From Escherichia coli (GTDB taxonomy: Bacteria > Pseudomonadota > Gammaproteobacteria > Enterobacterales > Enterobacteriaceae): a DNA stretch of 64,000 nucleotides. Below are positions 58,216 through 61,409 of the stretch, one piece after another. Numbering within the stretch: position 1 is the stretch's first letter; every line of letters begins with the position of its first letter. The translations under genes and the position numbers were made by a program. The notes beneath the pieces are model-generated. The model was not told the DNA's origin. It saw only the letters and a program-made list of their open reading frames with translations, and did not search any database. The stretch lies in NCBI RefSeq assembly GCF_050920415.1, contig NZ_CP169309.1; one strand, given 5' to 3'.

Positions 58216-58406
58216 CTTTTGTTAACTCCTTTTTATAGATGCGGGAGGGGATTCCTCACCCTGGTGCCGATTTTCAGGCATCCTGATTTAACTTAGCACC
58301 CGCGACTTAACTACAGGAAAACAAAGAGATAAATGTCTAATCCTGATGCAAATTGAGCCGATTTTTTAATCTTTACGGACTTTTACCCGCCTGGTTTATT
58401 AATTTC

Positions 58407-58437
58407 TTGACCTTCCCCTTGCTGGAAGGTTTAACCT
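58407..58437 (+). promoter_or_regulatory. copA promoter with CueR (MerR-type) operator: -35 TTGACC, 19-bp spacer containing dyad CCTTCC-N7-GGAAGG, -10 TAACCT
   Basis: TTGACCTTCCCCTTGCTGGAAGGTTTAACCT seen about 40 bp upstream of the copA start; the 19-bp spacer is diagnostic of MerR-family promoters. Confidence 0.75.
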
Positions 58438-58476
58438 TTAACACAGTCAGTCAACACTGTCTTAAAGGAGTACGTT

Positions 58477-60981
58477 ATGTCACAAACTATCGACCTGACC
58501 CTGGACGGCCTGTCCTGCGGTCACTGCGTTAAACGCGTGAAAGAAAGTCTCGAACAGCGCCCGGACGTTGAGCAGGCGGATGTGTCTATCACTGAAGCAC
58601 ACGTTACGGGTACTGCCAGTGCAGAACAGCTGATCGAAACCATCAAACAAGCGGGTTATGACGCATCTGTAAGCCACCCAAAGGCTAAACCGCTGGCGGA
58701 GTCATCAATCCCGTCGGAAGCACTGACAGCGGTTTCTGAGGCGCTTCCGGCAGCAAACGCCGATGACGATGACAGCCAGCAGTTGCTGCTGAGCGGCATG
58801 AGCTGCGCCAGCTGTGTCACCCGCGTACAAAATGCGCTGCAAAGCGTACCGGGCGTCACTCAGGCACGGGTAAACCTGGCGGAGCGTACTGCGCTGGTGA
58901 TGGGCAGTGCCTCTCCACAAGATTTAGTGCAGGCGGTGGAAAAAGCGGGCTACGGCGCGGAAGCGATTGAAGATGACGCTAAACGCCGCGAGCGCCAGCA
59001 GGAAACCGCCGTCGCTACCATGAAGCGCTTCCGCTGGCAGGCAATTGTCGCTCTGGCGCTAGGTATCCCGGTGATGGTCTGGGGGATGATCGGCGATAAC
59101 ATGATGGTCACCGCCGACAACCGCAGTCTGTGGTTAGTTATCGGCCTGATAACGCTGGCGGTAATGGTTTTCGCCGGCGGGCATTTTTACCGTAGCGCAT
59201 GGAAAAGCCTGCTGAACGGTGCGGCGACAATGGATACGCTGGTGGCGCTGGGTACTGGCGTGGCGTGGCTCTATTCAATGAGCGTCAACCTGTGGCCGCA
59301 GTGGTTCCCGATGGAAGCGCGACATCTTTATTACGAAGCCAGTGCGATGATTATCGGTCTGATTAATCTCGGTCATATGCTGGAAGCGCGCGCACGTCAG
59401 CGTTCTTCAAAGGCGCTGGAAAAGTTACTCGATTTAACCCCGCCGACGGCGCGCCTGGTCACTGACGAAGGTGAAAAAAGCGTGCCGCTGGCAGATGTTC
59501 AGCCTGGTATGTTACTGCGCCTGACGACCGGCGATCGCGTACCGGTAGATGGTGAAATTACCCAGGGCGAAGCGTGGCTGGATGAAGCAATGCTGACGGG
59601 CGAACCTATCCCACAGCAAAAAGGCGAAGGCGATAGCGTTCATGCAGGTACCGTGGTGCAGGACGGTAGCGTGCTGTTTCGTGCCAGTGCGGTTGGCAGC
59701 CATACTACGCTGTCACGGATCATTCGTATGGTGCGCCAGGCCCAGAGCAGTAAACCGGAAATCGGCCAGTTGGCGGATAAAATCTCTGCCGTATTTGTGC
59801 CGGTAGTGGTGGTGATTGCGCTAGTCAGTGCGGCCATCTGGTACTTCTTTGGTCCGGCACCGCAAATTGTTTATACCCTGGTGATTGCCACTACGGTACT
59901 GATTATCGCCTGCCCGTGTGCGCTGGGGCTGGCAACGCCAATGTCGATTATTTCCGGCGTCGGGCGTGCGGCTGAATTTGGCGTGCTGGTACGGGACGCC
60001 GACGCGCTGCAACGCGCCAGTACGCTCGACACCGTAGTGTTCGATAAAACCGGGACGCTGACCGAAGGGAAGCCGCAGGTTGTCGCAGTGAAAACATTTG
60101 CTGATGTTGACGAAGCGCAGGCGCTGCGTCTGGCGGCGGCACTGGAACAAGGTTCCAGCCATCCGCTGGCACGAGCGATCCTCGATAAAGCAGGCGATAT
60201 GCAACTGCCGCAGGTCAACAGCTTCCGTACATTGCGTGGGCTGGGCGTGAGCGGTGAAGCAGAAGGTCATGCGTTATTGCTGGGTAATCAGGCGTTGTTA
60301 AATGACCAGCAAGTCGATACTAAAGCGATTGAAGCAGATATTTCAGCTCAGGCATCGCAAGGGGCAACGCCTGTGCTGCTGGCGATTGACGGGAAAGCGG
60401 TGGCCCTGCTGGCGGTGCGCGATCCGTTGCGTAACGATAGCGTGGCGGCACTGCAACGTCTGCATAAAGCGGGATATCGTCTGGTGATGCTAACCGGGGA
60501 TAACCCGACCACCGCCAATGCGATCGCCAAAGAAGCAGGGATTGATGAGGTGATAGCCGGGGTGCTGCCAGACGGTAAAGCCGAAGCGATCAAACGTCTG
60601 CAAAGTGAAGGACGTCAGGTGGCAATGGTGGGTGACGGCATTAACGACGCGCCAGCACTGGCCCAGGCGGATGTCGGTATTGCGATGGGGGGCGGCAGCG
60701 ATGTTGCCATTGAAACCGCGGCGATTACCCTGATGCGCCATAGCCTGATGGGTGTTGCGGATGCGCTCGCAATTTCCCGCGCAACGCTGCGCAACATGAA
60801 GCAGAACCTGCTCGGTGCGTTTATCTACAACAGCATTGGTATTCCGGTCGCCGCCGGTATTTTGTGGCCGTTCACTGGAACCCTGCTTAACCCGGTGGTT
60901 GCCGGAGCGGCAATGGCGCTCTCGTCGATCACCGTAGTGAGTAACGCCAACCGGTTGCTGCGGTTTAAACCGAAAGAGTGA
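58477..60981 (+). CDS. copA: Cu(I)-translocating P1B-type ATPase
   Basis: 834-aa ORF with two N-terminal metal-binding domains ([16 protein letters not shown]), CPC motif, phosphorylation motif DKTGTLT and [10 protein letters not shown]. Confidence 0.93.
58677..58683 (+). other. slippery heptamer CCCAAAG in copA at codon about 69 (candidate -1 programmed frameshift site giving the short CopA(Z) product)
   Basis: Heptamer seen in sequence at the end of the first metal-binding domain (…SHPKAKP…); recalled from published E. coli copA work. Confidence 0.5.
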
Positions 60982-61021
60982 TTGGTATTTACTTAATGCG
61001 TTTGTGAGATCCAGTTCTTGT

Positions 61022-61265
61022 TGCGCTCCTTTTATGAGTCATGCCATATAAAGTGACTGGCGCAAGGAGCGCGCAGGGGGCGGCCAATCGCCGCCGCCCC
61101 CTGCACCCCCGGGCTCTGGCGAACAAAATCGCCGCTGCGCGGTACCCTCGGCTTATCCCTTGCGGCTACCGGGTCGGGCGCGAGGTAACATCCCTGTAAA
61201 ACGCGCCCTCAGCCCACATCCATGTGGGCTGCCCCGGCCTTCAGGGAACGCCTCGGCGATTTTGA
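61022..61265. repeat. GC-rich palindromic intergenic element (multiple perfect hairpins) between copA and ybaP
   Basis: Hairpins GCAGGGGGCGGC/GCCGCCCCCTGC (61073-61104), AGCCCACAT/ATGTGGGCT (61211-61230), TGCGCTCCTT/AAGGAGCGCG (61022-61073) and long-range CAAAATCGCCG/CGGCGATTTTG; no ORF. Confidence 0.4.
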
Positions 61266-61409
61266 CGCCACCAACACCCGTGCAGTCTTTCGTTTCAAAG
61301 CAAAAACAATTTTTCGATCATATTTAAGCTACCACTGAACAAGCCTCATAACTCCATTTGCGCCATCCCTCACCGCGCGCTAGCATGATATTTCACAAAG
61401 GGAGGTCGT

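Follow-up and report, generated by a model that had tools for sequence, protein, structure and literature searches.

A -1 ribosomal frameshift in copA of Escherichia coli K-12, producing the short protein CopA(Z), was reportedly described by Meydan et al. in 2017 (Mol Cell 65:207), and Drees et al. (2017, Mol Microbiol 106:635) are said to have dealt with the same K-12 copA/CopA(Z) system. Frameshifting in E. coli copA is backed by ribosome profiling and by an independent study (PMC9548414); the slippery sequence, a pseudoknot and the nascent chain work jointly (PMC7558416), E. coli ribosomes shift very readily on C_CCA_AAG (PMC5009743), and copA pseudoknot stem mutants show reduced frameshifting in single-molecule assays (PMC6182138). 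Here we report on copA in a 64,000-nucleotide stretch of E. coli DNA (contig NZ_CP169309.1, assembly GCF_050920415.1; hereafter the window, with all coordinates on its + strand), where an earlier note had pointed to a heptamer, CCCAAAG, at 58677-58683. Our data make it very probable that the heptamer marks the programmed -1 ribosomal frameshift site already known from copA. Judged by its sequence the copA frameshift signal appears fully intact in this strain, and it is an ordinary signal that has already been well described.

Compared with the K-12 site, the gene, its neighbourhood, the heptamer and its phase, the -1 stop, the 70-aa product, the promoter and the CueR box are all the same, and only the allele background differs (94.65% nt identity gene-wide and 12 aa differences, all of them in the full-length pump, the nearest being T94N). 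Stand-alone chaperones of the CopZ/Atx1 type, as in Enterococcus hirae and Bacillus subtilis, are likewise ≈70-aa single HMA-domain proteins with a CxxC motif and CopA as partner (PMC7558416). These are encoded by separate genes, usually in a cop operon, whereas here the chaperone would be cut from the first domain of the pump by recoding. One distant locus in our sample (L010, Methylomagnum) has the separate-ORF chaperone arrangement. For dnaX the stimulators are an internal Shine-Dalgarno (SD) sequence about 10 nt upstream of its heptamer and a downstream stem-loop. Like copA, dnaX is a chromosomal case of -1 frameshifting with A_AAG in the A site, and in both systems a nearby -1 stop gives a truncated functional protein beside the full-length one (PMC10861913, PMC6771820). 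The copA stimulator differs in being a predicted H-type pseudoknot without an evident SD-like motif upstream: by inspection no AGGAGG-like run was seen in 58655-58676 (GGGTTATGACGCATCTGTAAGCCA), the ≈20 nt that precede the heptamer. A -1 frameshift has also been claimed for ATP7B, the human copA orthologue, reportedly in the same 2017 paper as the copA site (Meydan et al.). The ATP7B frameshift is a reporter artefact, with a site that is not conserved and no synonymous constraint (PMC9548414), in contrast to the bacterial copA site, which has both site conservation and synonymous constraint.

In the ORF list the zero frame of copA runs over 58477..60981, with a Cu(+)-exporting P-type ATPase of 834 aa as its product. 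The gene matches the copA annotated in E. coli MFDS1022581 (NZ_CP169399.1) at 100% identity and has the same genomic neighbours as in K-12, with glsA-ybaT upstream and ybaP downstream. The promoter context (58407..58437) does not differ from the sequence upstream of copA in K-12 and consists of the hexamers TTGACC (58407-12) and TAACCT (58432-37) with a 19-bp spacer; it went unreported in a sigma-70 scan that covered 16-18 nt spacers only. The dyad ACCTTCCCCTTGCTGGAAGGT (58410-58430) between these hexamers is presumably the CueR operator of the CueR-dependent PcopA. According to Pfam, HMA domain 1 covers residues 8-62 (PF00403; coding region 58498..58662) and HMA domain 2 residues 105-159.

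The slippery heptamer C_CCA_AAG (58677..58683) lies between the two HMA domains, five residues past HMA domain 1, and has the X_XXY_YYZ arrangement in the zero frame of copA: codon 67 (CAC, His) contributes its third base, C58677, and CCA and AAG are codons 68 (Pro) and 69 (Lys), respectively. The earlier note had put it at codon about 69 and where the first metal-binding domain ends, both of which agree with this position, and had matched it to the published copA site, which is borne out by the phase and by base-for-base identity of the cassette to K-12. Reading of the -1 frame from the heptamer gives CCC AAA GGC TAA and hence a 70-aa product with the C-terminus HPKG. The recoded CopA(Z) ORF, as deduced from the translations, is join(58477..58683, 58683..58688), in which G58683 is read twice, Gly70 is GGC at 58683-85 and the TAA at 58686..58688 ends the protein directly after Gly70. 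This product, putatively a soluble copper chaperone, holds one complete HMA domain (PF00403, E = 1.2e-13, profile positions 3-62 of 62), and HMA domain 1 makes up its whole folded part, in keeping with the short CopA(Z) that the earlier note had anticipated.

Downstream of the heptamer, after a 6-nt spacer (58684..58689, from the sequence and the stem coordinates) that holds most of the -1 stop, two stems are predicted, each independently by a folding tool. Stem 1 (S1) pairs 58690..58699 (CCGCUG-G-CGG) with 58723..58732 (CUG-A-CAGCGG) and came from an RNAalifold consensus without author input, and stem 2 (S2) pairs 58713..58721 (GUCGGAAGC), inside the stem 1 loop, with 58743..58751 (GCUUCCGGC) and came from the minimum-free-energy (MFE) fold of the window. 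The predicted energies are -11.1 kcal/mol for S1 and -14.2 kcal/mol for S2. Because S1 and S2 interleave in this predicted pairing scheme, they would form an H-type pseudoknot that starts 6 nt past the heptamer.

Pairing was followed across 80 distinct cassettes from Enterobacteriaceae and Erwiniaceae. Paired cells amount to 99.0% for S1 and 93.3% for S2; for both stems together 96.2% are paired versus 18-45% when the partners are slid by 1-3 columns, a control that is flattered by the S2 register having been picked post hoc. Double changes occur at five pairs versus 1.2 in shuffles. Specifically, a compensatory change in S1 from C-G to U-A at 58693/58729 is present in 18 sequences from five of the 16 clusters (80% identity), another from C-G to A-U at 58690/58732 occurs in an Erwinia-type sequence, the S1 internal mismatch is closed to U-A in a Mixta-type sequence, and the S2 pair 58714/58750 is preserved through an alternation of U.G, C-G and U-A. 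The covariation represents few independent events, and the S1 U-A variant is restricted to Pantoea-like lineages. Two further elements were considered and not adopted. The MFE fold contains a possible third helix of GUCAUC (58701-06) with GAUGAC (58762-67). Over the 80 sequences its duplex energy beats shuffles by only ≈1 SD, and Erwiniaceae-type sequences lack it. Two A-U pairs (58688-89 with 58733-34) that lengthen S1 specifically in E. coli are not conserved, forming in 11-29% of the sequences, and were dropped. A scan of 58300-59100 against Rfam gave chance-level hits only (E = 1.6-9.6, far below gathering scores) and matched no copA frameshift element; covariance models do not represent pseudoknots. 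The earlier note had asked for a downstream pseudoknot, and had named a -1 frame ending only far downstream and a missing stimulatory structure as outcomes that would count against recoding. Neither outcome was seen: a conserved, covarying two-stem pseudoknot is predicted 6 nt after the heptamer, and the -1 stop is three codons from the heptamer start.

Conservation was assessed in 102 distinct homologues, 54-98% identical to the window and forming 16 clusters at 80% identity, with Citrobacter, Enterobacter, Pluralibacter, Pantoea, Erwinia, Duffyella and Mixta as named members. They were retrieved in a metagenome DNA scan anchored on the CxxC motif of the first metal-binding domain (MBD1), which does not overlap the frameshift cassette. 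Five metagenome contigs (L107, L125, L130, L154 and L169) with indels in or near the cassette, probably assembly errors, were left out. A search of genome contigs with full-length CopA was dominated by generic P-type ATPase motifs, and its Enterobacterales loci were Citrobacter, Enterobacter and Photorhabdus only.

The heptamer is retained in 85 of 86 distinct cassettes, the exception being C_CCA_AAA in a Pluralibacter-type sequence, and in 85 of 86 the -1 stop is the third -1 codon even though zero-frame residues 70-71 vary. The stop columns T58686 and A58688 are invariant in the 80 distinct cassettes, with A or G as the middle base. Codon 70 invariably ends in T, over Ala, Pro, Ser, Leu and Thr codons, so that the -1 stop is kept. 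Among the 102 homologues the four-fold degenerate codon CCA is present in 100% and AAG in 98%, the codon before CCA always ends in C whatever residue it encodes (H, F, S, L, Y, R or P), and synonymous variation in codons 67-69 is zero or near zero. Suppressed synonymous variation extends over codons 67-92 (58675..58752) and is confined to them, a footprint that coincides with heptamer, -1 stop and pseudoknot. Entropy per codon is 0.26 bit in this stretch compared to 1.0-1.2 bit for the codons of HMA1, the linker and HMA2 on either side, and the third-position major-allele frequency is 0.86 versus 0.56-0.66 in the flanks. The recoding signals are under purifying selection beyond what the protein requires. 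Among 68 phylogenetically distant copA loci with an N-terminal CxxC, in-phase slippery runs are scattered, three of them with a close -1 stop at the corresponding position; they are from AT-rich genomes and near chance expectation.

Within E. coli, copA nt 136-278 and nt 282-437 are 100% identical to K-12. The first of these stretches starts 65 nt before the heptamer and ends 3 nt beyond S2, and thereby takes in the upstream nascent-peptide codons, the heptamer, the spacer and both stems. CopA residues 1-93 are identical to K-12, so any upstream nascent-peptide element there is kept. The nearest substitutions, at 58755 and 58757 (T94N), follow S2 at a distance of 4-6 nt and might conceivably influence a more extended structure. 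Moreover, a 90-nt core (58663-58752) is present at ≥99% identity, which on 90 nt means zero mismatches over the aligned part, in 5339 of 5422 matching E. coli records, in contrast to the whole 2.8-kb region, which is just 90-95% identical in 3986 records. About 98% of complete E. coli genomes carry the recoding site without change.

The reading that we favour, programmed frameshifting, can be laid out as follows. Translation from 58477 would bring tRNA-Pro onto CCA in the P site and tRNA-Lys onto AAG in the A site, with the mRNA entry channel encountering the pseudoknot 6 nt downstream (S1, 58690-99/58723-32; S2, 58713-21/58743-51). The resistance of the pseudoknot would, with a contribution from the nascent peptide as indicated by the literature, cause a fraction of the ribosomes to slip both tRNAs by one base, back onto CCC and AAA. 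Slipped ribosomes would then read GGC (Gly70) and UAA (58686-88) and give the 70-aa CopA(Z), essentially HMA domain 1, and unslipped ribosomes would give the 834-aa pump. We propose that one copper-induced mRNA would therefore provide pump and chaperone in a fixed ratio. The present analysis shows the layout of the site, its identity to the K-12 allele, the conserved -1 stop, the conserved and covarying pseudoknot and the constraint on synonymous positions. That slippage takes place, how efficient it is, what the nascent peptide adds and that the product acts as a chaperone we infer from published work on K-12, where the sequence is the same. That recoding is retained in this strain, as the earlier note suggested, is likely, since all sequence-level requirements of the published site are present; we found no evidence in the sequence against frameshifting.

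The strong conserved structure at 58690-58751 might instead chiefly serve to produce a short copA mRNA, through pausing, termination or processing just after domain 1, such that the chaperone would come largely from truncated mRNA and frameshifting would be minor, or would serve as a clean translation end on the truncated mRNA. A short copA transcript has been reported and the title of Drees et al. can be counted in favour, but no intrinsic-terminator-like site (stem plus T-run) is present downstream of the heptamer in 58690-59150, and truncation alone leaves the invariance of the heptamer at synonymous sites, its fixed phase and the invariant -1 stop unexplained. We consider this improbable as the main source of the chaperone, and it complements frameshifting instead of excluding it.

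Less probable again, with very little chance of being correct, is that the heptamer is incidental, i.e., merely His-Pro-Lys codons at the start of the inter-domain linker without recoding in this strain. The motif as such is not over-represented, with two copies of CCCAAAG in the window versus 8.6 ± 2.9 expected from shuffles, and by our own arithmetic the chance of an in-phase copy anywhere in the 835-codon gene is ≈0.05 (roughly 5%). What is above chance is the context and the conservation of the heptamer, not the heptamer per se. Fixation of CCA and near-fixation of AAG (100% and 98% of the 102 homologues), the C-ending preceding codon and the constant T in codon 70 that preserves the -1 stop all argue against coincidence, as does identity to the K-12 allele, which has been experimentally shown to frameshift (PMC9548414). 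Slippage of RNA polymerase on the A-run, in place of the ribosome, would give the same protein sequence, and of the explanations weighed here it is the one to which we attach hardly any probability. Productive transcriptional slippage in bacteria requires runs of about 7 or more, and the A-run in CCCAAAG is only three; transcriptional slippage would need neither a structure 6 nt downstream nor C_CC, and both are conserved.

Returning to programmed frameshifting, a broader reading, which we put forward tentatively and regard as rather doubtful when taken as a whole, is that the cassette is an ancient, selected unit of Enterobacteriaceae and Erwiniaceae that sets linker residues, with variants that may tune the ratio of the products. 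This unit would comprise the heptamer, the one-codon -1 tail and the two-stem pseudoknot. The cassette appears to dictate the otherwise unstructured linker between MBD1 and MBD2 (P-K-x-x-P-L ... P-x-E-A-L-T-A). Natural variants of the cassette may represent lineage-specific tuning of the chaperone-to-pump ratio; examples are the C_CCA_AAA of Pluralibacter, the stimulator of Mixta, which is only a hairpin, and the S2 of Pantoea, which is shortened. Part of this cross-family picture was probably already reported in the 2017 paper (Meydan et al.).

The earlier note had described the site as a known feature that is missed by the ORF track, and both statements agree with the records. The curated K-12 RefSeq CDS YP_009518752.1, 'soluble Cu(+) chaperone', agrees with the ORF given above in its 212-nt span and in being made of two pieces, whereas PGAP gives full-length copA only, for the identical genome as well as for the further E. 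coli records that were sampled; compared to these, the curated K-12 record is the only one to carry the chaperone CDS. The strain thus has a divergent copA allele with the recoding signal untouched, as expected for strong purifying selection. Finally, the main value of the finding is for annotation, in that a 70-aa copper chaperone that automatic pipelines overlook is encoded here, and counts of copper-homeostasis proteins or of small proteins in this strain should gain join(58477..58683, 58683..58688).

The heptamer CCCAAAG lies at 58677-58683 on the + strand, as borne out by both the sequence and a motif search, within an ORF of 834 codons (58477-60981; ORF list). This ORF is copA: the 2.8-kb region matches that annotated as copA in E. 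coli MFDS1022581 with 100% identity; relative to K-12 copA it shows 94.65% identity and 12 amino-acid differences. Codon 67 (CAC) has C58677 as its third base and is followed by CCA (codon 68) and AAG (codon 69), which is the phase required for tandem slippage. Pfam predicted heavy-metal-associated (HMA) domains at residues 8-62 and 105-159, and the heptamer is positioned five residues past the first of these, at the start of the linker, in keeping with the earlier note that had placed it at the end of the first metal-binding domain. On its own the heptamer is not remarkable, given two copies in the window (8.6 +/- 2.9 expected), and copA contains just one further in-phase X_XXY_YYZ run, GGGGGGC at 60687.

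The -1 frame reads CCC AAA GGC TAA and does not run on to a distant stop; the slipped reading adds one glycine and gives a 70-aa protein (M1...H67-P68-K69-G70) comprising one complete HMA domain (Pfam). The curated K-12 record carries a matching 212-nt two-piece CDS annotated as 'soluble Cu(+) chaperone' (YP_009518752.1). No chaperone CDS is present in the PGAP annotation of a genome identical to the window, and the earlier note was therefore right that the ORF track misses this feature.

Downstream of the heptamer, where the stimulatory structure might have been absent, the sequence is identical to K-12 and is predicted to form a pseudoknot. Single-sequence folding of 58684-58770 gave a 9-bp helix, stem 2 (S2; 58713-58721 with 58743-58751, + strand; stem energy -14.2 kcal/mol), while RNAalifold applied to 80 distinct homologous cassettes gave stem 1 (S1; 58690-58695 with 58727-58732, plus 58697-58699 with 58723-58725, + strand; stem energy -11.1 kcal/mol). 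Because the 5' arm of S2 is inside the S1 loop and its 3' arm outside, the two modelled stems would together form an H-type pseudoknot, which a 6-nt spacer separates from the heptamer; loop 1 has 13 nt, loop 3 has 10 nt and one base at the junction is unpaired. In the 80-sequence alignment 99.0% of the S1 cells and 93.3% of the S2 cells are paired, the S2 register having been chosen with the sequences in view, and overall pairing is 96.2% compared to 18-45% when the partners are slid by 1-3 columns. Double changes were found at five pairs vs 1.2 in shuffles, with few independent events. The clearest is 58693/58729, where C-G is replaced by U-A in 18 sequences, all of them Pantoea-like and drawn from 5 of the 16 80%-identity clusters, and where Duffyella has a U.G intermediate; moreover, 58690/58732 is A-U in one Erwinia-type sequence, and in a Mixta-type sequence the internal S1 mismatch is closed to yield a perfect 10-bp S1. 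Within loop 1, UCA UCA AUC (58702-58710, codons 76-78) is under strong synonymous constraint (major codon 93-100%) yet unpaired in the S1/S2 model. A candidate helix between this region and GAUGAC (58762-67) is weakly supported, and a loop-helix tertiary contact is a possible alternative cause of the constraint.

The window matches K-12 base for base at copA nt 136 to 278 and again at 282 to 437, i.e., from 65 nt 5' of the heptamer to 3 nt past the pseudoknot, and hence K-12 cis-elements acting inside that span are also present here. Among the 5422 matching E. coli records, 5339 carry an identical 90-nt core (58663-58752), while the whole copA region shows just 90-95% identity in 3986 records. 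The window copA is a rare allele: of 5435 E. coli records, just 2 reach at least 99% identity over 2.8 kb (58300-61100), and most have 90-95%. Its divergence from K-12 is concentrated past codon ~200, the first ~520 nt being nearly identical, and the substitutions closest to the signal, at 58755 and 58757, cause T94N 4-6 nt 3' of S2.

For comparison, homologues were collected from named genome loci and a metagenome scan that was blind to the cassette (heptamer, -1 stop and pseudoknot), since it was anchored on the CxxC motif of the first metal-binding domain 170 nt upstream. This gave 102 distinct 480-nt homologues with 54-98% identity to the window (43 clusters at 90%, 16 at 80%). Divergent members were named by exact-sequence matches (Pantoea, Duffyella, Erwinia, Mixta and Pluralibacter), and with Citrobacter and Enterobacter also in the set the cassette is present in both Enterobacteriaceae and Erwiniaceae; the linker and the heptamer are both absent from Photorhabdus copA. 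Five metagenome contigs (L107, L125, L130, L154 and L169), in which the copA frame is broken by a deletion or by single-base indels within or just past the cassette, were left out of the statistics, the breaks being probable assembly errors.

The in-phase CCCAAAG is kept in 85 of 86 distinct cassettes, the Pluralibacter-type exception (C_CCA_AAA) still having a slippery pattern, and the -1 stop is the third codon in 85/86; the one outlier is L107, whose 1-nt insertion is probably an assembly error (the additional C gives CCA AAG GCC TAA in the zero frame). The codon before Pro encodes H, F, S, L, Y, R or P, with C as its last base throughout. The last base of codon 70 (Ala, Pro, Ser, Leu or Thr) is T in every case and codon 71 always begins with AA or GA, and consequently T[AG]A is invariant in the -1 frame. 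Codon entropy among sequences with the majority amino acid, taken as the measure of synonymous variation, is 0.26 bit for the cassette (codons 67-92), 1.17 bit for HMA1, 0.98 bit for the rest of the linker and 1.01 bit for HMA2; the low-entropy footprint extends from the heptamer to the final S2 base pair.

Individual copA homologues show further features. Pluralibacter gergoviae-type copA (L179, L189) carries C_CCA_AAA together with a TGA -1 stop and both pseudoknot stems; in E. coli, A_AAA slips less readily in the A site than A_AAG does, and frameshift efficiency may thus differ. In the Mixta-type copA (L155; CopA of 898 aa) the heptamer and -1 stop are retained, S1 is a perfect 10-bp hairpin (CCGCUGUCAG / CUGACAGCGG) closing a small loop, and there is no S2 5' arm; the linker is long, with internal repeats. 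The stimulator of this copA may consist of the hairpin alone. In one homologue with three N-terminal HMA domains (L093), only the first domain is followed by the heptamer and -1 stop. Three distant copA loci found by the genome scan (L031, L066 and L068) have in-phase slippery runs (GGGTTTT, GGGTTTT and AAAAAAA, respectively) 54-66 codons past the first CxxC, matching the position in E. coli, and each run has its -1 stop within 2-3 codons; they may represent independent analogues or have arisen by chance in AT-rich genomes.

Cassette anatomy, identity to K-12 and evolutionary constraint were observed, and the published copA -1 frameshift is the best-supported explanation of the site. The synonymous-site data contradict an incidental heptamer, and transcriptional slippage is implausible on a run of only three A's. 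A possible role of the RNA structure in making a short copA transcript, which Drees et al. 2017 suggest in their title, would be complementary to frameshifting; such a role leaves the conservation of the heptamer and stop unexplained, and no terminator-like site was found downstream of the frameshift site, in 58690-59150. According to the frameshift explanation, tRNA-Pro and tRNA-Lys would slip in tandem by -1 on C_CCA_AAG, promoted by the downstream pseudoknot; termination one codon past the slip would release the CopA(Z) chaperone, and ribosomes that do not slip would make the pump. In E. coli, C_CCA_AAG is highly prone to shifting (PMC5009743), pseudoknot stem mutants reduce copA frameshifting in single-molecule assays (PMC6182138), the nascent chain also promotes slippage (PMC7558416), and the K-12 event has the backing of ribosome profiling as well as of an independent study (PMC9548414). 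We infer that slippage also occurs in this E. coli strain.

Several observations concern the neighbourhood. The copA-ybaP interval, about 795 nt in K-12 with a REP-element cluster and ybaQ, is about 430 nt here (60982-61409), of which ~370 nt show no relation to K-12 and include a GC-rich inverted repeat (GGGGGCGGCCAATCGCCGCCGCCCCC); the identical genome is likewise annotated without ybaQ. Upstream of glsA-ybaT, at about 33400-57800, the annotation of the identical record lists a TolC-family outer-membrane protein gene and, on the strand opposite copA, a ~20.8-kb gene for a BapA-related adhesin SiiEA, unrelated to the frameshift site. Several 267-aa TraB/GumN (YbaP-like) proteins appear alongside Pantoea ananatis CopA in its 90%-identity protein cluster, and this looks like a database clustering artefact, perhaps originating from a fused gene call across adjacent copA and ybaP.

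Judged by its sequence, which has every defining feature visible at that level, the site belongs to the copA/CopA(Z) recoding family. It resembles dnaX in yielding a truncated functional product via -1 slippage on A_AAG, although the stimulators differ, and CopA(Z) is a functional analogue of stand-alone CopZ; the refuted ATP7B claim (PMC9548414) lacked exactly the conservation found at copA. As the earlier note had recognized, the feature is known. It has the same locus and product as K-12 CopA(Z); it is a textbook feature, correctly read, and its retention is the norm. The practical value is that the missing 70-aa CDS should be added to the annotation.
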